A stretch of DNA of 64,000 nucleotides, from NCBI GenBank assembly GCA_043826565.1, contig JBDRPX010000015.1, positions 3,317-67,316 on the forward strand. The letters are read 5' to 3'. Shown here in pieces: positions 24,301 through 53,359 of this stretch; the stretch's first letter is position 1, and every line of letters starts with the position of its first letter. The DNA comes from Candidatus Omnitrophota bacterium (GTDB lineage Bacteria; Omnitrophota; Gorgyraeia; B26-G9). The notes under the pieces were generated by a model. That model did not search any database, was not told where the DNA came from, and saw only the letters and a program-made list of their open reading frames with translations. The position numbers and the translations under genes were made by a program.

Positions 24301-24350
24301 AAATGGCGGATCCGCCTTGAGGCGAGATCTCGCCAAATTTTCCAAAAATT
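24301..24350. repeat. GC-rich palindromic module immediately 3' of tRNA-Ser(CGA)
   Basis: contains palindromes GGCGGATCCGCC and GGCGAGATCTCGCC; same palindromes recur at 21462, 33421 and 47196. Confidence 0.55.
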
Positions 24351-24440
24351 TGGCGGAGAGTGAAGGATTCGAACCTTCGGTCCGGTTGCCCGGACAACGG
24401 TTTTCGAGACCGCCACATTAAACCGCTCTGCCAACTCTCC
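24351..24440 (-). tRNA. tRNA-Ser (anticodon CGA), long variable arm
   Basis: minus-sense GGAGAGT..anticodon loop CTCGAAA..variable arm..T-arm GAAGGTTCGAATCCTTC..ACTCTCC-G-CCA. Confidence 0.85.
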
Positions 24441-24539
24441 GCGAATAATCGTAGATTATGAGCGGATATCGAACTCTGTTTTATAGAGTGAGATATCTTT
24501 TTATTCTAATCTTAAAATTTGTCAGCTAAATCTAGCTTT

Positions 24540-24743
24540 TTATCTCGCCGATCTATAATTACCACATTTTTCCTTATGTATAAGCTTTAGCGGTTTTCTG
24601 TATCTTGTGTAACGACACTTAGTTGTCGTATTATGCTCTTTTATTCGCTTATCAACATCTAATGCTATGCCCACATACAGACTTTTATCCCTGCACTCTG
24701 CTATATAAACAAACCATTGTTTTTGAAATACCTGCTTGTCCAT
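24540..24743 (-). CDS. small GIY-YIG nuclease-domain protein (paralog A)
   Basis: MDKQVFQKQWFVYIAECRDKSLYVGIALDVDKRIKEHN matches GIY-YIG motif; start placed at the Met aligning with paralog B. Confidence 0.75.
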   Translation of the reverse strand: MDKQVFQKQWFVYIAECRDKSLYVGIALDVDKRIKEHNTTTKCRYTRYRKPLKLIHKEKCGNYRSAR

Positions 24744-24774
24744 AATCAATGAGTTTTTGGCTCTCACCCTGCTA

Positions 24775-24900
24775 CACAGGGATTCGACCTCATTTGCATA
24801 AAACGCAAATGACCAACTCTCCGAGTTTTTACGCAGTAAAAACGAGGACTTCGAACCTGCCTTTCAGGTGAGAAGTCTTTTATCCCTCTCGCTATGCTCG
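24775..24900 (-). other. tRNA-like remnant / structured leader upstream of GIY-YIG A
   Basis: minus-sense GGAGAGTTGG (same as tRNA-Ser 5' end), 7-bp stem with 7-nt loop, GGTCGAATCC T-loop-like segment, plus hairpin GACTTCTCACCTGAAAGGCAGGTTCGAAGTC also present at 33338. Confidence 0.3.
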
Positions 24901-24991
24901 AGGTGATTTGTTTAACAGCACAAATCAGAACCCGGTTTTTCAGAGTGAGATATCTTCTCTCAGTTACTTTGGTTAAGATTCCTCGCTTCGC

Positions 24992-28283: not shown

Positions 28284-29321
28284 TTAAGCTAAGCTTTTTC
28301 TTTGGCTTTGCAATCCCCAGCCAATACCGGCCGCCAGCAAAAGCGTTAATGCTCCTCCAATCAAACCGGACAGGGAAGTTCCCGCGTCAATTACCGGCCA
28401 TGATTGTTTTTGTTCTTGTTCCGGATTGGCAATATCCTCGGCTTGTTTAAATCCATAGTCCGGGAAAAAAGCCGTCTTCTCCTGCACTGAGGATAAAGAA
28501 ACATGCATTGCCTTACTGCTTTCCAGCTCTTCCTGTCCGGAAGTTTTAAACATCGCCCACTCCAGTCCATCCGGATTAGATGACGCAAACCAACTTAAAA
28601 TCCCTCCGGTAAATACCGCGGCAATTAGCAGCCCCGTTAAAACTTTCCGTGTATTACCGGTTTCGGCTGGTTTCTTGTGATTAGCTGTTTTTAAAATTTC
28701 CGGACGCGCGTTCCAAATAAACATAACCACCGCGGCAGTAACCAGGCCCTCCACAATACCGATAGCCAGATGAATCGGCTGCATTAAAACAACAAATGTC
28801 TTAAACGGCAGTTCCGATATTCCCGAGCCCAGGGTTTCCAATACAACGCTAAAAGCTCCCAGCTGCAGGCCAATGATCGAGGCAATAACCGCAGCGATCA
28901 TAATTTTTCCCCGGGCAGAACTGTCCCCGGCAATCTTGCGATAAAGAAACGGATACGCGATAAAACAAGAAAAAAATCCCATATTAAAAATATTACATCC
29001 TAAGGCTAAAAGTCCGCCGTCGGCAAAAAACAGCGCCTGGATTATGAGAACCGATGCCATTACCAAAAAAGCCGCGTAGGGCCCCAGAAGAATCGCCAAG
29101 ATCATTCCTCCGCCCAAATGTCCGCTGGACCCGGTAGCCGGAATACTGAAATTAATCATCTGCGCGGCAAAGATAAACGCTCCCAATACTCCCATTAAGG
29201 GAATTTTGCGCTCATCTGCTTCTTCCTTAACTTTTTTCGCGCTAAACCCGATAAACCCCGCAGTAGCCGCCCACATCCCCACGCCCACTGCCGGAGAAAT
29301 CAAAGCATCTGCCATATGCAT
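28284..29321 (-). CDS. cbiM: cobalt/nickel ECF substrate-capture component CbiM fused to a PDGLE-type (CbiN/NikN-like) C-terminal extension
   Basis: N-terminus MHMADALISPAVG..., GSSGHLGGG motif; C-terminal part contains SSNPDGLEWA and an extra TM. Confidence 0.8.
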   Translation of the reverse strand: MHMADALISPAVGVGMWAATAGFIGFSAKKVKEEADERKIPLMGVLGAFIFAAQMINFSIPATGSSGHLGGGMILAILLGPYAAFLVMASVLIIQALFFADGGLLALGCNIFNMGFFSCFIAYPFLYRKIAGDSSARGKIMIAAVIASIIGLQLGAFSVVLETLGSGISELPFKTFVVLMQPIHLAIGIVEGLVTAAVVMFIWNARPEILKTANHKKPAETGNTRKVLTGLLIAAVFTGGILSWFASSNPDGLEWAMFKTSGQEELESSKAMHVSLSSVQEKTAFFPDYGFKQAEDIANPEQEQKQSWPVIDAGTSLSGLIGGALTLLLAAGIGWGLQSQRKSLA

Positions 29322-29402
29322 AATTGTCTCCTTTCTTCTAATTTAATCTCGCCATGCTTTCCGCCATAAAGCATGGCGGACAAGTGTGGCTGGTGTTTAT
29401 TT

Positions 29403-30617
29403 TTAAAAATCAATCTGTGTCCGGATTCCGCCAACCAAGATTGTAGATGTTCCATTAACCGCATCCTTACCATAAGGATTCGTGATCATCTGAATATCCG
29501 GAGTTACGGACAAATTTTCATTTACCCGGTAATTATAATAAAGCTCTGCGTGTCCTTCGGTTTTAGCCTGTAAATTCCCGGCTTTTTTATATTCATCAGA
29601 AGGATATATAAACCCATAGGCAAAACCCAAGACATCTTCGTCCCTTCCCCATAAAGTTCCGTTAAACTGCATTCCCGCACTGTAAGAACTTTCCAAAGAA
29701 AAGGTTGTTGTATCCAAAGCCGCCTCATCCTGCTGCCAGCCGCAGCGTAAAAATATTCCGACATCATCGGTGATTTCCTGGTCAAAGCTTACACCAAAAC
29801 CGCTACCCTCTTCTTTTATCTTAGCAGCAGCATTCCACTTGGTATGCGGTGCGTCATTGTACCAATAATACACGCGGTAATTCCCCGCACGGCCCATTAA
29901 TTCCGGTTTTAAATTAGCCTGAACTGCCCACCAAAGAGAATCTGCGATCTGATTAAAATCAGCATCACCGTCAGCAGTTATAGCTTCTATTTCCACGACA
30001 TCTGCTGCCAATACTCCCAGCCTAATCCCGATAGTATTGTCCGGGAACTCAATTACCGGAGAGCGCTTGAACATACTGCCCAAAAACTGCGCGCATTCAT
30101 CGCCCGCGTATTCATTAGCATCAATATAACTACTGCTATCAATCTTACCAAAAGTCAAAATCGCGGTATCATCAAAATTCTGCTCCCAGAATAATTCCGA
30201 AACCATCATAACCCCAGCGGCAGGGTTCGCGTCCTGATTGACATTAGAAAATAATTCCAGATCATCTGTAACGCCATTGCCTTCGCCGGTTTCTAAATGC
30301 AAAAACGCTTTGGCTCCATTATCAAATTCTTTTTCTAATTCAATATCCGCGGAATAGCTCGCGTCCGTAGTCTCATTTCCTTTATACCCGATATTATTCG
30401 CGGTAATTCCTGAACCATTGGCATTACTTGTTCCCTGAATAACCATTGTCGCGCCTACGCCCAGGTTTAATCCGTCCAATAAATTGGACCCTTCCAGCTT
30501 TTCTTCCAAAGCCGCAACCCTTGATTCTAAATCGTTCGCAGCTTGCGCGCAGCCACAGCTGGCCGCTAGTAACAGCCCCGCGGCAAAAACAACACCCCAC
30601 ACTTTACTAACCGGCAT
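29403..30617 (-). CDS. putative outer-membrane porin with N-terminal coiled-coil segment
   Basis: signal peptide; NDLESRVAALEEKLEG coiled-coil; alternating amphipathic strands; terminal F (..RTQIDF); directly upstream of cbiM. Confidence 0.55.
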   Translation of the reverse strand: MPVSKVWGVVFAAGLLLAASCGCAQAANDLESRVAALEEKLEGSNLLDGLNLGVGATMVIQGTSNANGSGITANNIGYKGNETTDASYSADIELEKEFDNGAKAFLHLETGEGNGVTDDLELFSNVNQDANPAAGVMMVSELFWEQNFDDTAILTFGKIDSSSYIDANEYAGDECAQFLGSMFKRSPVIEFPDNTIGIRLGVLAADVVEIEAITADGDADFNQIADSLWWAVQANLKPELMGRAGNYRVYYWYNDAPHTKWNAAAKIKEEGSGFGVSFDQEITDDVGIFLRCGWQQDEAALDTTTFSLESSYSAGMQFNGTLWGRDEDVLGFAYGFIYPSDEYKKAGNLQAKTEGHAELYYNYRVNENLSVTPDIQMITNPYGKDAVNGTSTILVGGIRTQIDF

Positions 30618-30704
30618 TACTCTCCTCCTTTAATACTCGCATCTTCCGGAGGCCCGGTCAGAATACAAAAATTTTCAATCAACATCTACGGGTGTAGTCT
30701 GTTA

Positions 30705-30866
30705 CTATTATCATGGAAACCGTTTTTTCTCTCTTTTCTCAATCTGAACCACCTTTGAATCATGCACGGTAATAACCACTTCTCCGTATTTGATCTTTTT
30801 TAAAGAGAGTACGATTTCGTCGATCACATCCTGGCTTATTTTCTGATTGGAATTTAAATCTTTCAT
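30705..30866 (-). CDS. YezD/DUF2292-family small protein (53 aa), not in ORF track
   Basis: translation [51 protein letters not shown] fits the YezD pattern ..YGsVtItVhdgkVvQIE..EK.R. Confidence 0.55.
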
Positions 30867-30938
30867 TTATAGTAGCACGTTTTTTATAATAGTAACACGA
30901 AAGAGTGAAATGTCAAGAATTTTTACTAGGCGGGTTAT

Positions 30939-32354
30939 TTAATGCCGGGGTTTGCATTCTCTCCCAAAAACTTCAAACTCCCACAAAGAATGGCCGAATT
31001 CTGTTCCGCGCTCAATAGCATACATACTTATATACCGCGCCGGAGCATTAAGATTGGTGATCTCTTCAGTTTTTCCTTTTCCGTTTTGCGTAGAATAAAT
31101 TGTCTGCCATTCTACGGCATTTTCGGAAACCTGTATTTCATAGGTCGTAGCGTATGCCACTTCCCAGCTTAAGCGAACAGCTTTAATCCAATAGGTTTCG
31201 CCTAAATCGATCTGGATCCATTGCGAGTCCGCAAAGTGAGAAGACCAGCGGGTATCCGGATTTCCGTCAACCGCAGATTCCGGAGGGTATTGGGCTGATT
31301 CAACCGTGGAAGAACTTACCTGTTTGTTTTGGGAAATCAAATGCGGCGCCCCCGGAGACACAACAAAGTGAGCTTTTATCTGTTTGTGCGCGTTCATTTT
31401 GATTATTGCCGGGTTTTCTCTTCCGGTTAAATCTCCGCTCCAATGACTGAATTCATATCCGATAGACGGGCTTACCGTAAGGCTAACACTATCTCCTTCT
31501 TTATACACCTCTTGCTGAGGGTCAGCAGTAATATGCCCGTTTTGAGTATATGTCGTTAAAAAATATGCCCCGGGAACTTCTTTCGCGTAAATACGCACAT
31601 AATCGATCTCATGATATTGCGGAAATTCTGTAGCACTGTTAGGGCTTCCCGGCCAGTTACCGCCGACTGCTGTATTCAGAATTAAGTAAAACGGCTCCTG
31701 CGGGATATTGTCCGTTTCCAGAAAGCATTGCACTCCGTCAACATACCAGCACAATTCCTGGGGGGTCCATGCTAAAGCAAATGTGTGAAAATCATCAGAA
31801 AAATCCGGGCCGGTATACATAGAGGCCTGGTGTTTTTTATTCGGCCAGATGCCCCAGTGGTGGGTCGTATAAATAGTATTGGGCGAATGCCCTAAGAGCT
31901 CCATAATGTCTATTTCCGGAGGCCATTCTCCGCTTGCCGGCAGCATCCAATGCGCTGCCCATAAACCTTTTCCTTTAGGCAGTTTTGCTCTTATTTCAAA
32001 ATATCCGTATTGTCTGGCAAATCGATCTATTGTTTCTACTAGTCCGGAGGTGTATTGCCGGCCTTTCATTAATCTTTTCTGACTGCGTAAAACAAGAACC
32101 CCGTCCTGCAAATAGACATCTTCCGGAGTATAATATTGAAGCTCATTATTTTTAAACAGAGCCGCGTCTTCAATTCTCCATTTAGTCAGGTCTAATGATT
32201 CTCCTTCAAATTCATCCTGCCAGAGAAGACACCAATTTTCTTTAATTTCCCGGGGAGTCGTTTGCGCGTATACTGTAATACCTGATATTAAAAATAGTCC
32301 TGCGGCGAGGAAAACAATGGGCAGGGATTTATATATTAAACAACGCTTTTTCAT
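30939..32354 (-). CDS. secreted glycoside hydrolase family 16 (laminarinase/beta-glucanase-type) with C-terminal F5/8 type C (discoidin/CBM32-like) domain
   Basis: signal peptide; GH16 catalytic motif EIDIME; C-terminal ..NPDTRWSS..WIQIDLGETYWI.. Confidence 0.85.
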   Translation of the reverse strand: MKKRCLIYKSLPIVFLAAGLFLISGITVYAQTTPREIKENWCLLWQDEFEGESLDLTKWRIEDAALFKNNELQYYTPEDVYLQDGVLVLRSQKRLMKGRQYTSGLVETIDRFARQYGYFEIRAKLPKGKGLWAAHWMLPASGEWPPEIDIMELLGHSPNTIYTTHHWGIWPNKKHQASMYTGPDFSDDFHTFALAWTPQELCWYVDGVQCFLETDNIPQEPFYLILNTAVGGNWPGSPNSATEFPQYHEIDYVRIYAKEVPGAYFLTTYTQNGHITADPQQEVYKEGDSVSLTVSPSIGYEFSHWSGDLTGRENPAIIKMNAHKQIKAHFVVSPGAPHLISQNKQVSSSTVESAQYPPESAVDGNPDTRWSSHFADSQWIQIDLGETYWIKAVRLSWEVAYATTYEIQVSENAVEWQTIYSTQNGKGKTEEITNLNAPARYISMYAIERGTEFGHSLWEFEVFGRECKPRH

Positions 32355-32403
32355 TTTATAATCATCTCGCCAGGCAACAGATCTCTATTAAATGTCTTTT
32401 CTT

Positions 32404-32703
32404 CTATTTAATTTTAGACATTATTGTTTTTGCTCCGACAAAGTCGCTTCCCTCTTCCTGACGCACAACCTTGTAAAACTCACAGCTTAAACATTTACTT
32501 AGCTTTACAGCAAATGAAGCTTGTTTTTCACCGTCACAAAGAGTATCCATGATCGCCCAGCAGGCCCGGCCGCCGTTTTTCCCATGGTTAATTCCCTCTG
32601 TTCTTTTTTCTGTTGCCGCCGTACATACCCCGCATTTTTCCGCATTTGCACCGCCCGGCTGGCATCCGCATTTTTTAAATTCCCAGCAATTAATTTTTAC
32701 CAT
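32404..32703 (-). CDS. small cysteine-rich protein, two-CW-domain-like (paralog 2)
   Basis: NCWEFKKCG..GKNGGRACWAIMDTLC..CLSCEFYKVVRQEE; two CW dipeptides. Confidence 0.6.
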   Translation of the reverse strand: MVKINCWEFKKCGCQPGGANAEKCGVCTAATEKRTEGINHGKNGGRACWAIMDTLCDGEKQASFAVKLSKCLSCEFYKVVRQEEGSDFVGAKTIMSKIK

Positions 32704-32958
32704 AAATTACCCCCAAGTAGAAACATAATATTCTCTCCTTTTATATCAGAAATTCACTAAAAAAGCAACCCTTAAAGACCTCCGCCGCATCGCCCGCCCC
32801 TTGCTTTTCCAAAAAATTTATGCTATCTTATGCACGTACCGTTAGTTTTGATCGTATGATCTTTTGCGGAAAAATACCTGGGCGGTGATCTGAGCGTAAG
32901 CGAAGATCATCTCGAACAGAGTGAGAGATCTTCAAAAAGCCTACAGGATAAGAATATC

Positions 32959-33291
32959 TTGATGAATAAAGATATATTTGTAAAACCTTGGTTTTTATAT
33001 ATCGCAAAATGTCGAGATGGGACACTTTATGTTGGTGTTGCGCAAGATGTATATAAAAGAATAAAGGAACATAATACAACCAATCGATGTAGATATACGC
33101 GGTTCCGCAAGCCACTAATATTGATATATAAGGAAAAATCTGATAATTATAGCTTAGTGCGAAAAAGAGAATCAGAAGTAAAGAAATTTAGTCGGAAGAA
33201 AAAGCTAGCGCTAATAGAACAAAGAATCTCAGAGAAGCTATCTCACCCCAAAGAACGGGGTTCGATATCCGCTGATCGAAGCAAAAGTTGA
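32959..33291 (+). CDS. small GIY-YIG nuclease-domain protein (paralog B) with basic C-terminal tail
   Basis: MNKDIFVKPWFLYIAKCRDGTLYVGVAQDVYKRIKEHN..; flanked by about 31-bp imperfect direct repeats. Confidence 0.75.
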   Translation: MMNKDIFVKPWFLYIAKCRDGTLYVGVAQDVYKRIKEHNTTNRCRYTRFRKPLILIYKEKSDNYSLVRKRESEVKKFSRKKKLALIEQRISEKLSHPKERGSISADRSKS

Positions 33292-33392
33292 GATCATCTC
33301 GAGCAAACGCGAGAGATCTGATTATATTTAGACATAAGACTTCTCACCTGAAAAACAGGTTCGACGTCCGCTCAAAATTATTAGCATAATTA

Positions 33393-33418
33393 TTCGCGGA
33401 GGAATGGCTGAGCGGTTG
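33393..33418 (+). repeat. 26-bp duplicate of the 5' end of tRNA-Ser(UGA) gene (ttcgc + acceptor/D-arm)
   Basis: ttcgcggaggaatggctgagcggttg identical to 33635..33660; not followed by the rest of a tRNA. Confidence 0.6.
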
Positions 33419-33639
33419 TCCGCCGGGAGGACACAGAGAAGTTGCCTACGGCGAGATCTCGCCCGGCCTAATAAGAAAAATTTTTGATTTTGGCCGAGGC
33501 GGAAATGCGGCTGGTCTTGCGAAGCGAATGAAATGAGCGGAGTCCCGCAAGGATGCTTAAATAAGAGCACTGTCGCGGGGCAAACCGTTGTAACAACGGA
33601 ATACATAGTATACTTAAACAAAAATTTAATATTTTTCGC

Positions 33640-33727
33640 GGAGGAATGGCTGAGCGGTTGAAAGCGGCGGTCTTGAAAACCGTTGTACTGCAAGGTACCG
33701 TGGGTTCGAATCCTACTTCCTCCGCCA
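33640..33727 (+). tRNA. tRNA-Ser (anticodon UGA), long variable arm
   Basis: GGAGGAA..anticodon loop CTTGAAA..variable arm TGTACTGCAAGGTAC..T-arm GTGGGTTCGAATCCTAC..TTCCTCC-G-CCA. Confidence 0.85.
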
Positions 33728-34032
33728 GAACATCAAACCCCCTTCATGGGGGTTTTTATTTTCTAGTCGTGGATGAGGAGGATGAGAACCCAAAAAGAGG
33801 ATTTTAAGGAGGAGGATTGTTCCTTCTTATCGGCGCACGTGAACCCCACGCGGAAGGAAAAGGAACAGCCCGAAGGGCGATAGGGAAAAACCATGAGGGT
33901 TTTTCTCTATAGAGTAAGCGGACCGCAATACCGGCAAAGCCGGTTGTAGGGAAGCGACACGACGGGGGCGTAATCCTACTTCCTCCGCCAGAAAAGCGCC
34001 TTTCACTGAAAGCCTTCTTTCTGGTATAATAA
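33721..34032 (+). repeat. structured non-coding repeat element copy 1, starting at tRNA-Ser 3' end (terminator, hairpin-rich core, duplicated tRNA 3' end, extended -10)
   Basis: about 90% identical to 38747..39045; reading frames not conserved between copies; ends with aatcctacttcctccgcca (19-bp repeat of tRNA 3' end) then TGGTATAAT. Confidence 0.6.
33735..33764 (+). terminator. intrinsic terminator after tRNA-Ser(UGA)
   Basis: AAACCCCCTTCATGGGGGTTTTTATTTTC. Confidence 0.6.
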
Positions 34033-34056
34033 CACATATTTAAAAAGGAAATTTTT

Positions 34057-34911
34057 ATGAAAAAATTAAAACCAAAAGAACCATTACTGGCGCTATTATT
34101 AGCCTGTCTTTTCCCAGGATTAGGACAAGTGTATGCAGGACAGACAAAACGCGGGATTAAATTCTTTTGCCTTTTAGTTGTCTTGCCGTTAATCCCCATC
34201 TTGTATCTTTTACATCCTCAGACAGGGATACCTGCTGTTTTAGGATATGCTTTTCTGGCAATGCTTGGCTTTCTGGTTATTTTAAGTTTTGTTGTGCTTG
34301 TAGACGCATATAAATGTGCAAAATCGTTCAATCGGCATCGTAATATTAAAATAACTACTTCTCGGTCAAAAAAGTTTTGGCTAATTATCTACATTATCTT
34401 TTTTCTCTTCGTGTTCAATCCTAGTTCTCTCGTTGGGCTTTATGTGAAAACATCGGTGATTCAAGCCTTTAAAATCCCGGTAGGCTCAATGATGCCTACA
34501 CTTATTGCAGGAGATCGTATTATTTGTAATAAACTGGCTTATAAAAAATCCGCACCGAAAAGAGGTGATGTTATAATTTTTAAATTTCCGGAAAACCCTA
34601 AAATTGTTTTTATTAAAAGACTCGTGGGATTTCCCGGAGAAACATTAGAAATTCGGAGTGGACAGATTATCATTAATGGCAAAACACTTAAAGAGCCTAA
34701 AGCAATAACACAAACGTTTTATCATAATCGCGGAGAATATGGACAGGAAGAACAAGCTATTACAATCCCAGAAGATAGTTATTTTTGCCTGGGAGATAAC
34801 AGCTATAATAGCAGAGATTCCCGTTATTGGGGGTTTGTCCCGAAAAAGAACCTTATAGGTAAAGCATATAAGATTTATTGGCCTTTTGATAGATCGGGGC
34901 CAATAGAATAA
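34057..34911 (+). CDS. lepB: signal peptidase I with extended multi-TM N-terminal region
   Basis: boxes GSMMPTL (Ser), KRLVGFPGE (Lys), GDNSYNSRDSRYWGFV; about 115-aa N-terminal membrane extension. Confidence 0.85.
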   Translation: MKKLKPKEPLLALLLACLFPGLGQVYAGQTKRGIKFFCLLVVLPLIPILYLLHPQTGIPAVLGYAFLAMLGFLVILSFVVLVDAYKCAKSFNRHRNIKITTSRSKKFWLIIYIIFFLFVFNPSSLVGLYVKTSVIQAFKIPVGSMMPTLIAGDRIICNKLAYKKSAPKRGDVIIFKFPENPKIVFIKRLVGFPGETLEIRSGQIIINGKTLKEPKAITQTFYHNRGEYGQEEQAITIPEDSYFCLGDNSYNSRDSRYWGFVPKKNLIGKAYKIYWPFDRSGPIE

Positions 34912-38491: not shown

Positions 38492-38731
38492 TTATTCCCC
38501 TCCCCTTCTAATATGCCGAATCGCCCTAATAACAGTCTTTTTACTAACCTTCAGACTCTGGGCTATATCTATGTAGTTCATGCCTAATAGGCATAATTGT
38601 GTGGCTTTTGGGGCTATCTTTTGATATAAAGGGATTTGTTGTGTTGGAAGTACTTTGATATGTGCGTTGATTTCGGCTGCACATTCGACAGGCTCAGTGT
38701 GCCCGGTGGTCACGGTGCGAATTGGTTGCAA
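38492..38731 (-). CDS. small HTH-domain protein (transposase-N-terminus / sigma-70 region-4-like HTH), paralog 1, TTG start
   Basis: LQPIRTVTTGHTEPVECAAEINAHIKVLP...LLGMNYIDIAQSLKVSKKTVIRAI; about 75% identical to the 46947..47186 product; first roughly 90 nt nearly identical at DNA level. Confidence 0.5.
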   Translation of the reverse strand: MQPIRTVTTGHTEPVECAAEINAHIKVLPTQQIPLYQKIAPKATQLCLLGMNYIDIAQSLKVSKKTVIRAIRHIRRGGE

Positions 38732-38746
38732 CTGCGTCCGCCAGAA

Positions 38747-39045
38747 AATCAAACCCCCTTCATGGGGGTTTTTATTTTCTAGTCGTGAATGAGGAGGATG
38801 AGAACCCAAAAAGAGGATTTTAAGGAGGAAGATTGTTCCTCCTTGTCGGCGCACGTACCCCCACCCGGAAGGAAAAGGAACAGCCCGAAGGGCGATAGGG
38901 AAAAACCATGAGGGTTTTCCTCTATGGAGTGAGCGGACCGCAATACCGGCAAAGCCGGTTGTAGGGAAGCGACACGATGGGGGCGTAATCCTACTTCCTC
39001 CGCCAAAAGCACCTTTCTCCAAAAGCCTTCTTTCTGGTATAATAA
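38747..39045 (+). repeat. structured non-coding repeat element copy 2 (terminator, core, tRNA-Ser 3'-end-like segment, extended -10)
   Basis: see 33721..34032; here it abuts the 5' end of the small HTH gene at ...gcgtccgcca. Confidence 0.6.
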
Positions 39046-53190: not shown

Positions 53191-53359
53191 AGAATCAGCT
53201 CCTTAATTTGCCTTGGCAAATTAACCTCGAACATATTTTAGTGAGAGGTCTCTACATTTTTATTCTTACATTTGAAAATAACATAGCCTACTAAAAAACT
53301 CAAGCAAAAACACTATTTCTTTTTTTTGTTTTAACCTGTCACTTGCGACCTGAAACCAG

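Follow-up and report, generated by a model that had tools for sequence, protein, structure and literature searches.

Partial tRNA-Ser copies, covarying hairpins and minimal GIY-YIG nuclease genes in front of serine tRNA genes of Omnitrophota: candidate scars of mobile cassettes

What leaves broken copies of a tRNA gene lying in front of the intact one? We analyzed a 64-kb window (the whole 64,000-nt stretch, from contig JBDRPX010000015.1 of a Candidatus Omnitrophota assembly) that contains two tRNA genes according to ARAGORN and Rfam. Both are tRNA-Ser genes, and each has a gene for a GIY-YIG nuclease upstream. The main subject here is the region in front of the intact tRNA-Ser(UGA) gene (33640..33727, + strand; ARAGORN, and 60.1 bits with the Rfam tRNA model), which we call module B; module A lies beside tRNA-Ser(CGA) (24351-24440, - strand). 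With moderate confidence, we interpret the region as stacked scars of homing-endonuclease-like cassettes and small palindromic elements that entered tRNA-Ser genes, a duplication of the tRNA 5' part having kept the tRNA intact. An earlier sequence-only reading had listed an open reading frame (ORF), direct repeats, a hairpin, a copy of the tRNA 5' end, a palindrome and the tRNA in this region, and all of them were found at or near where it had placed them.

Anatomy of the region upstream of tRNA-Ser(UGA)

Nine leader nucleotides and the first 21 nt of tRNA-Ser(UGA) are present twice. The upstream copy at 33389..33418 (+ strand; tRNA part 33398-33418) matches 33631-33660 at 29/30 positions, and the same match is found in an independent contig (L054); by our own calculation, the chance expectation of such a match within 1.4 kb is ~1e-10. 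The sequence-only reading had described a 26-bp copy at 33393..33418; the copy exists, with a length of 30 nt. Might an assembler have collapsed or duplicated the tRNA 5' end? The window does come from a metagenome-assembled genome, and L054, a Logan contig from run SRR26275510, ends inside the intact tRNA-Ser(UGA), as assemblers do at repeats. However, that contig is 100% identical to the window over 28962-33676 (4.7 kb), covering both tRNA 5' copies and the complete spacer between them, so the arrangement is not peculiar to this assembly, and the same design recurs in unrelated contigs from other assemblies. We give an assembly artifact next to no weight.

Upstream of the nuclease ORF, loci from several genomes (alignment A6) share one order: the first 18-20 nt of tRNA-Ser ending in GAG(T/C)GG, an AT-rich hairpin (hp1), a second hairpin (hp2), 10-30 nt, and the ATG. 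This left end is kept across isoacceptors, and both window modules conform to it. In module B it begins with GGAAAAATACCTGGGCGG at 32868..32885 (+ strand), a decayed and apparently the oldest copy of tRNA-Ser nt 1-18 (13/18 by our own count; 67% over 30 nt), which aligns with the tRNA 5' fragments of other loci and had been overlooked in the sequence-only reading. The first conserved module at the cassette's left end is hp1 (32886..32909, + strand; TGATCT-GAGCGTAAGCGA-AGATCA), whose stem varies by locus yet stays complementary (ACATTTTC/GAAAATGT, TGATTTTC/GAAAATCA, TCATTTGC/GCAAATGA; read off the alignment, unscored). It is followed by hp2 (32910..32933, + strand; TCTCGAAC-loop-GTGAGAGATCT), which has the general form TCTCGAAC-loop-GGTGAGAGATCT across loci and is an inverted copy, 10-30 nt before the ATG, of a hairpin that we call M. 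The covariance model of M (R1) accordingly matches hp2 on the minus strand at 32904-32932 (E 0.021), and it finds an inverted M just before the GIY-YIG start in 11 other loci. The 3' arm of hp2 (GGTGAGAG in most loci) may be a masked ribosome-binding site.

GIY-YIG nuclease gene B occupies 32962..33291 (+ strand; 109 aa from the ATG; Pfam PF01541, E 2e-14). Its ~90 homologs are 50-76% identical to it and belong to Omnitrophota wherever the source names the organism; they are single-domain proteins, typically of 85-95 aa (~88). Because these homologs align to residues 1-86 only, the "basic tail" that the sequence-only reading had given the protein is unconserved read-through into the downstream hairpin: the conserved core spans 32962-33219, and the remainder reads through the hairpin copy M1. 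The assignment to the GIY-YIG family stands, as the PF01541 match shows. I-TevI gains a long recognition site from an extra DNA-binding domain; the ~88-aa homologs have no such domain. In 35 sequences of the family Y22, G24, R32, H36, N37, E57 and E69 are invariant or near-invariant, Y44 and R46 are likewise listed among the conserved residues of GIY-YIG B, and the family profile matches the UPF0213 structures 1zg2 (E 5e-17) and 1ywl (E 4e-14) in the Protein Data Bank. By these signs GIY-YIG B is a stand-alone minimal domain of the Slx1/UPF0213 branch with predicted nuclease activity. The proteins of both structures were assigned to the bacterial Slx1 branch of minimal stand-alone domains, a branch separate from the I-TevI/UvrC (homing-endonuclease) lineage and mainly vertically inherited (Dunin-Horkawicz et al., PMC1564403). 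The same study reports a bacterial Slx1-like domain fused to a TrmH-type enzyme that modifies tRNA G18; we note as a coincidence that repeat boundaries here fall at G18-G19.

The order on the 3' side of the ORF is hairpin M, an AT-rich hairpin H, and the intact tRNA. M has the form AGATCTCTC-RYCC-loop-GGRY-TCGAGATCC and is a real, structure-constrained element: among 24 copies, 98% of cells are paired, 7 of the 10 pairs have changed on both sides, and the pairing score is reached by 0/500 shuffles and not approached by slid registers either. A direct-orientation M follows the ORF in nearly all loci. Within the window, R1 matches only beside the two modules, save for a chance-level match at 53220-53252 (15.6 bits, E 0.47), and the motif TCTCAC-N-GTTCGA occurs four times, always adjoining one of the two tRNA-Ser genes (0.01 expected), which bears out the claim that the hairpin of module A is repeated downstream of GIY-YIG B.

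Module B holds two direct copies, M1 (33235..33273, + strand; 44.3 bits, E 4e-8) and M2 (33336..33372, + strand; 42 bits, E 1.4e-7), the latter being the hairpin that had been noted at 33338-33369. Between them the left-end hairpins appear again as hp1' and hp2' (33273..33319, + strand; a 76% repeat, with a weak minus-strand R1 match at 33291-33320), and no ORF comes after. These duplicates account for the 31-bp imperfect direct repeats of the sequence-only reading: the repeats exist and are longer than described (32883-32931 and 33270-33319 are 76% identical), but as copies of the conserved hp1 and hp2 they are neither a target-site duplication nor ends made by an insertion. M2 is followed by the AT-rich leader H (33373..33397, + strand) ahead of the pseudo-tRNA, where a sigma-70-like match at 33361-33390 points at the first base. 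That match is 9/12, and the number of such matches in the region is not above chance; as for M and H forming a tRNA-Ser promoter, the sigma-70 scan did not call the equivalent sites in loci L003 and L016. Promoter, processing signal and protein-binding site could all be roles of M. As a separate observation, M, with its conserved TC/TC internal mismatch, also stands before tRNA-Ser genes or fragments that have no GIY-YIG gene (L007 4541-4581, L003 2349-2389, L014 2290-2374); these bacteria may have it as a normal part of the sequence ahead of their tRNA-Ser genes.

Module A (24351..24975, - strand) follows the same design with a slightly different stack: decayed M, hp1', hp2', M, H, tRNA nt 1-10, hp1, hp2, truncated GIY-YIG, M, H and tRNA. 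The ORF-less hp1'-hp2'-M unit is shared by the two modules (33220-33369 and 24971-24846 are 68% identical). The nuclease copy A (24540-24743, - strand; PF01541, E 5.5e-12) extends no further than residue 67; past an internal deletion, a different frame has to be read to find the C-terminal motif KKLDLA. Copy A is a pseudogene that lacks the last part of the core.

What fills the spacer between the two 5' copies of tRNA-Ser(UGA)? It had been described as a single structured unit. We read it instead as a mosaic of colinear tRNA-Ser remnants, reaching to ~nt 47, and palindromic inserts. Insert 1 (33419..33502, + strand) occupies the pseudo-tRNA's D-loop. TCCGCC/GGCGGA closes it, and within it lie a CGGCC/GGCCG hairpin and the palindrome GGCGAGATCTCGCC. 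This palindrome, at 33450-33463, is the one that had been reported after the 5' copy, and it occurs again at 24321; TCCGCC- and TCCCGC-type hairpins occupy the same D-loop site in L007 and L027. The next piece, AAATGCGGCTGGTCTTG (33503..33519, + strand), resembles tRNA nt 22-36 with two 1-nt insertions. The local alignment of 33491-33526 with tRNA nt 8-43 scores 15, which 4/500 shuffles reach; an alternative parse would make 33491-33519 a second, diverged copy of the D-arm. Insert 2 (33520..33581, + strand) interrupts the anticodon loop and consists of a head, GCGAAGCGAA-N5-TGAGCGGAGTCC, and then a variable hairpin; the head match covers 33519-33545, its first G shared with the anticodon. Unique in the window, insert 2 is 88% identical over 35 nt to L007 4974-5008. 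Beyond it, AAACCGTTGTA (33582..33592, + strand) is identical to tRNA nt 38-48 (11/11; the second-best alignment score, reached by 6/500 shuffles), and an AT-rich linker with the leader of the intact tRNA, recognized from its sequence, completes the region (33593..33639, + strand). A disrupted ancestral tRNA repaired by duplication, as the sequence-only reading had suggested in the alternative, comes close to this evidence, the pieces being colinear to ~nt 47, broken by insertions, and found in the same form elsewhere.

Is the spacer a functional RNA? It could be a structured 5' leader or a tRNA-derived small RNA that controls processing, acts as a decoy for anticodon nucleases, or regulates in cis or trans. 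The spacer region folds better than shuffled sequences (z -2.6; -3.9 for its equivalent in L007), the 5' repeat is exact while older fragments decay, the design is found again in seven loci, and in L007, L027, L031 and L040 a linker of no more than 6-10 nt separates the pseudo-half from the intact tRNA, making cotranscription likely. Nevertheless, palindromic inserts alone would give the folding signal, and in the pseudo-copy both the D stem and the anticodon stem are impaired by the two 1-nt insertions, which argues for decay rather than maintenance. Insert 1 is absent in L032 and different in other loci, insert 2 is generic and also lies within protein genes, and the acceptor strand of the pseudo-half is mismatched to the adjacent tRNA in L007, L040 and L046. 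Rfam 15, scanned at gathering scores over the whole window, at E up to 10 over 32700-34100, and over nine related loci, returned no family in 33419-33639 and only the tRNA itself besides chance-level overlapping matches; the spacer therefore does not correspond to a known RNA family, and no ribozyme, intron, tmRNA or signal recognition particle (SRP) RNA was found in the window or the related loci. A tmRNA or SRP RNA was also rejected for a second spacer on the ARAGORN and Rfam results together. On this evidence a functional RNA is distinctly unlikely.

The positions of the inserts bring to mind an intron-containing or split tRNA, in which the 5' part and its inserts would be joined to a 3' half to make a second tRNA-Ser. 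Introns at D-loop and anticodon-loop positions are known in tRNAs of other domains of life, and those are the loops interrupted here. But the pseudo-copy stops at ~nt 47, without its own T-arm or 3' acceptor strand; in 3/7 loci, base pairing between its acceptor strand and the neighboring tRNA's 3' strand is impossible (L007, L040 and L046, for which a switch or split tRNA formed with the adjacent 3' half was rejected); Rfam recognizes no intron family; and insert 2 is found in protein genes and intergenic DNA as well. We regard this explanation as scarcely credible.

Recurrence in other genomes

Do other genomes have the same arrangement? A comparative scan with one genome per species gave 25 loci with a GIY-YIG homolog, all from Omnitrophota or mislabeled relatives. 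A tRNA-Ser gene lies downstream on the same strand in 23 of them, with anticodon GCU, CGA, UGA or GGA and at a distance of 6-240 nt, except in two loci where a LAGLIDADG gene intervenes. As for the remaining two, one contig ends 54 nt past the gene, and the other continues for 250 nt, in which there is no tRNA. Some tRNA-Ser genes in related contigs, of uncertain orthology, have no GIY-YIG gene, for example at L007 4602 and in L032. In the two exceptions to the spacing (L006 2840-3895 and L015 422-1477) the intervening gene encodes a 351-aa LAGLIDADG endonuclease (Pfam PF14528) and abuts the tRNA start; the slot before tRNA-Ser is thus used by two endonuclease families. The GIY-YIG tree and the anticodons show part clustering and part mixing, though the protein is short and the tree weak. 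Full-text literature searches returned no paper linking UPF0213/GIY-YIG genes to tRNA-Ser genes in bacteria. In addition, a second and more distant GIY-YIG homolog (42% identity) has tRNA-Gln on one side and tRNA-Leu on the other at L019 1341-1583. Leucine tRNAs are the other bacterial class with a long variable arm. Given this locus, the tRNA linkage of the family could reach beyond serine.

In 21 loci, we compared the sequence that precedes the GIY-YIG gene with the interval between the stop codon of that gene and tRNA nt 50. Direct repeats were present in 16, a count that includes L013 and L018, where the upstream partner is the start of a complete neighboring tRNA-Ser, and L011 and module A, where the repeat is leader-only. 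The repeat that brackets the cassette includes the tRNA 5' end in 12/21 loci, at 87-100% identity. On the right, ten of these repeats stop at tRNA nt 18-21, that of L024 at nt 15 and that of L014 at nt 31. On the left, they start anywhere between +6 and -104: some consist of just the first 13-18 nt of the tRNA (L001, L012, L023, L025), others take in the whole upstream M-H region (L003, L007, L014). With few exceptions, the upstream fragment matches the local tRNA exactly, whichever the isoacceptor. In L002, a truncated upstream GIY-YIG remnant accompanies a 97% repeat of 76 nt. The window's 30-nt repeat, which ends at nt 21, belongs by its boundary to the same class.

These boundaries bear on two ways of making the repeats. 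A fixed staggered cut producing a long target-site duplication is disfavored by left ends that range from +6 to -104. The sequence-only reading had proposed an integration or recombination scar in the tRNA 5' half, and this holds in spirit, the copy ending at nt 21 and ten others at nt 18-21, but no integrase or att-type system accounts for it. Direct repeats of tRNA sequence are a hallmark of tRNA-targeting integrative elements, and the repeat could in principle be the att-type duplication of an integrase-driven element that carried the tRNA 5' part and left a remnant, like a cis-mobilizable element. An exact 22-nt repeat on the 3' side of the tRNA, bracketing a 241-nt body with a second genomic copy, would fit such an origin for that 3' element, to which we return below. 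What integrases normally duplicate, however, is the 3'-terminal part of a tRNA, starting in the anticodon loop or T-loop; the part duplicated here is the 5' one (nt 1-21), ending in the D-loop. Left ends also differ between loci, the material between the repeats is mostly tRNA-derived, and the ORFs at the locus that match a protein family (GIY-YIG, two-CW-domain protein, signal peptidase) include no recombinase, the rest of the window not having been screened. An integrase scar is accordingly quite improbable.

The broken 5' half with its anticodon-loop insert is not confined to the window either. An exact-pattern scan found the head of insert 2 at 28 metagenome loci, and at five of these, as well as in L007, it lies in the anticodon loop of a tRNA-Ser 5' pseudo-half; with the window included, its position is identical in seven pseudo-halves. 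The pseudo-half ends at ~nt 42-48 in L027, L032, L040 and L046, and an intact tRNA-Ser follows 6-36 nt later. L032 is the cleanest case: its tRNA is almost the same as the window's, nt 1-35 and 36-46 of the pseudo-half are identical to the intact copy, and the D-loop insert is absent. At L007 4842-5045, M and H precede a tRNA-Ser(CGA)-like 5' part with a TCCGCC-type D-loop insert and insert 2, and an intact tRNA-Ser begins 9 nt on. In L031 (minus strand, ~1020-790), two broken tRNA-Ser(UGA)-like copies adjoin: a contig-truncated pseudo-half with insert 2 and, after it, a second broken copy with a different hairpin insert at the same anticodon-loop position; downstream are a weak GIY-YIG relative (38% identity) and tRNA-Ser(GCU). 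The pseudo-half derives from another tRNA-Ser allele than the adjacent gene in L027, L040, L046 and L007.

Insert 2 itself is, to judge from these matches, a widespread small element. It is multicopy, short and hairpin-forming and occurs in varied contexts, protein genes and intergenic DNA among them, as would be expected of an element resembling miniature inverted-repeat transposable elements; its flanks are A-rich, with no clear terminal repeat or target duplication definable. Since the contigs with a pseudo-half and insert 2 hold no close GIY-YIG gene, insert 2 is not tied to the cassette.

Several of the remaining insert 2 sites are at the 3' ends of protein genes (L026 7415-7441(-), L033 4565-4591(-), L041 1440-1466, L043 1950-1976, L052 5360-5386(-), L053 3543-3569, L036/L039/L045/L047 and L034 881-907). 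From their translations only, the genes were read as the essential trmD, rplB, ilvC and rplL. Where insert 2 interrupts a gene end it brings an in-frame TGA, and its variable N5 or N6 preserves the frame. Downstream of insert 2 in trmD and rplB, the last 14-22 codons are present once more, in a version that differs mostly at synonymous sites, as if derived from another allele; at the ilvC locus L047, the intact gene end lies 100 nt upstream of the insert-2-interrupted copy of that end.

Could local duplication alone, by slippage or unequal recombination in tandem tRNA-Ser arrays and subsequent decay, have produced all this, the GIY-YIG gene being a mere neighbor and the inserts tolerated in a redundant copy? 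Tandem tRNA-Ser arrays are common (L004, L007, L010, L013, L018 and L020; L027, L040 and L046), the loci with a pseudo-half and insert 2 have no close GIY-YIG gene, insert 2 is found in many unrelated places, and the pseudo stems carry damaging 1-nt insertions. Local duplication nevertheless leaves unexplained the concentration of repeat ends at nt 18-21 (ten independent loci), the tie between GIY-YIG and tRNA-Ser in 23/25 loci, and the constant anticodon-loop site of insert 2 in seven independent pseudo-halves. Moreover, a pseudo-half that represents a different allele, as in L027, L040, L046 and L007, is not a simple local duplicate. We consider this explanation unlikely, while taking it seriously.

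How the stacked remnants may have formed

The account that we favor, of nuclease cassettes entering tRNA-Ser genes and decaying there, would run as follows. The agent would be a small mobile cassette built around a minimal Slx1/UPF0213-type GIY-YIG gene, with hp1, hp2, the ORF and usually M and H, residing in Omnitrophota within or at the tRNA-Ser 5' part. If a tRNA-Ser gene broke in its D-loop region, at about nt 18-21, repair would place the cassette behind a displaced copy of the tRNA 5' part and ahead of a complete tRNA, so that the essential gene would survive. The displaced fragment would then decay and gather small palindromic insertion elements. The sequences themselves show the anatomy, its presence in further genomes, the covariation of M and the nuclease family; from them we infer that the GIY-YIG protein makes the break, as well as the break site, the repair route and the order of events.

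In module B, three layers may be discerned, ordered on the supposition that the newest is nearest to the intact tRNA. The oldest would be the GIY-YIG B cassette with its decayed tRNA fragment (13/18), the second the ORF-less cassette remnant (hp1', hp2', M2), and the newest the copy of tRNA nt 1-47 broken by the D-loop hairpin insert and the ~60-nt anticodon-loop element. In the tRNA precursor, the ~240 nt that separate the repeat copies probably form a leader that RNase P removes. The linkage to tRNA-Ser (23/25), the bracketing repeats, and the truncated and ORF-less copies are signs of repeated invasion and decay. A precedent for a nuclease of this fold acting on tRNA genes is SegB of phages T4/T6, a GIY-YIG homing endonuclease encoded in a tRNA cluster that cuts inside tRNA genes (PMC2330249); a 2026 study found that SegB drives recombination-dependent segmental amplification of the tRNA-containing segment (PMC13096335).

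Several observations weigh against this account. No empty site in a close relative was found, and the best homolog elsewhere of the flanking 99-aa two-CW-domain protein is 65% identical, its family being spread over many phyla (homolog search, same genome excepted). Only the repeat boundaries place the putative break at tRNA nt 18-21, and their varying left ends misfit a fixed staggered cut. At ~88 aa, the protein is no more than a catalytic domain, its Slx1/UPF0213 lineage is mainly vertical and stands apart from the homing endonucleases (PMC1564403), and the protein has no DNA-binding domain to account for tRNA-Ser specificity. The intact tRNA retains the presumed target, and self-cutting would somehow have to be avoided. 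The newest layer, to which the 30-nt repeat belongs, has no nuclease gene, nor do the contigs with a pseudo-half and insert 2 hold a close GIY-YIG; that layer may therefore have arisen by another route. Finally, local duplication or gene conversion is needed in addition, because fragments usually match the local tRNA while cassettes appear to switch isoacceptors.

How might so small a protein find its target? One thought is that the tRNA nt 1-19 fragment with hp1 and hp2 is a guide-plus-scaffold RNA that steers the mini GIY-YIG to tRNA-Ser genes in the manner of OMEGA systems. It would account both for the targeting of one isotype by an 88-aa domain and for the usual match of the fragment to the local tRNA; we rate it as a long shot. 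A milder version is that an Slx1-type nuclease could recognize cloverleaf or hairpin DNA, formed by tRNA-Ser genes and by M or hp2.

Related systems and neighboring elements

Which of these features are familiar? SegB resembles the system proposed here in that a GIY-YIG gene stands among tRNA genes and cuts inside them, the breaks leading to recombination-dependent copying and tandem amplification. SegB homologs are statistically enriched beside tRNAs, with no isotype favored (PMC2330249, PMC13096335). SegB is a phage protein, however, whereas the Omnitrophota protein is of ~88 aa and Slx1/UPF0213-type, chromosomal, tied to one isotype, and flanked by partial 5' tRNA duplications and covarying hairpins. 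The viral collections searched contained no insert 2 and GIY-YIG relatives of only 36-37% identity; these searches thus gave no sign of a phage origin.

The closest counterpart in terms of logic is found in the free-standing homing endonuclease genes of fungal mitochondria (Allomyces atp6, Ophiostoma rps3), which carry or create a duplicate of the gene end that they displace. There, too, a selfish nuclease gene sits in an essential gene, a partial duplication rescues it, and the displaced fragment stays as a pseudo-copy; it is the 3' end of an organelle protein gene, whereas here it would be the 5' part of a bacterial chromosomal tRNA gene and the nuclease is Slx1-like. tRNA-targeting integrative elements share the direct repeats of tRNA sequence and the replacement copy that keeps the tRNA intact, but the repeat here runs from the 5' end to the D-loop, is variable in length, and has no integrase in view beside the region.

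REP/BIME, Correia and Rickettsia palindromic elements are small palindromic insertion elements, and insert 2 and the TCCGCC-type hairpins are, like them, short, multicopy and hairpin-forming and found in genes, RNA genes and intergenic DNA. Insert 2 differs by its 27-nt conserved, nonpalindromic head, its fixed anticodon-loop site in seven pseudo-halves, the in-frame TGA that it gives at protein gene ends, and its lack of an Rfam family. In IscB/TnpB (OMEGA) elements, guide RNAs derived from the transposon end serve an RuvC/HNH nuclease. The likeness is a target-identical stretch (tRNA nt 1-19) directly 5' of conserved hairpins and a small nuclease ORF; in contrast, the nuclease here is a tiny GIY-YIG rather than RuvC/HNH protein, RNA guidance is hypothetical, and the module B fragment has decayed though the ORF is intact.

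GIY-YIG nucleases, partial gene duplication beside a selfish gene, and small palindromic elements are thus known kinds. What is new is the combination of an Slx1-type mini nuclease, strict tRNA-Ser linkage, a 5' duplication with its boundary in the D-loop, and covarying, inverted hairpins. If our interpretation is correct, Omnitrophota harbor selfish cassettes that are based on the smallest kind of GIY-YIG protein and specialized on serine tRNA genes, of which the literature searched describes none. They would spare their host by duplicating the 5' part of the gene, mirroring the 3' replacement practiced by integrases, and would bring bacterial chromosomes, beside phages and organelles, into homing-endonuclease biology. 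For the UPF0213/Slx1-like proteins, which are widespread but of obscure function, there would be a candidate substrate—tRNA-Ser gene DNA near G18-G19 of the D-loop, or M hairpins—and partial tRNA copies that confuse the annotation of uncultured genomes would be explained. Insert 2 offers a second lead, as it recurs at essential protein gene ends beside diverged duplicates of those ends.

A separate element lies on the 3' side of tRNA-Ser(UGA) (33709..33993, + strand). Exact 22-nt repeats of the tRNA 3' end (33709-33730 and 33972-33993) enclose a 241-nt body, the second repeat sitting 263 nt downstream of the first; the sequence-only reading had overlooked it. The body and ~40 nt beyond are present as a 95% copy at 38744-38990, 5 kb off, flanked by TCCGCCAGAA on the left only; the element and its second copy cover 33709-34030 and 38735-39045. 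The body folds strongly (z -4.2), with GGAGGAGGA pairing with the tRNA-like 3' end, and neither Rfam nor ARAGORN matches it. It may be a small element targeting the 3' end of tRNA-Ser or a tRNA-like RNA gene. A short coding remnant resembling a helix-turn-helix (HTH_23, E 0.001, under the Pfam cut-off) lies by the second copy, at 38495-38640 (-), and may be left over from a recombinase or transposase gene.

The neighbors of module B, from ORF and Pfam matches, are the two-CW-domain protein (99 aa) and a signal peptidase; within 32903-33727, no ORF besides the GIY-YIG gene matched a Pfam protein family. Other hairpins are also found around tRNA-Ser genes. In four genomes, a long imperfect hairpin region of ~100 nt comes after tRNA-Ser(GCU) (L001 997-1110, L003 2919-3030, L011 2947-3060, L012 2947-3060), with a pyrimidine-rich arm, an inner hairpin and a AGGAAAAGGA-type arm, and without an Rfam match. 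Directly downstream of tRNA-Ser(CGA), the window has GGCGAGATCTCGCC and GGCGGATCCGCC (24320-24345, -). The hairpin stems around both tRNA-Ser genes repeatedly contain six-base palindromes similar to restriction sites (AGATCT, GGATCC, GATATC, CTCGAG).

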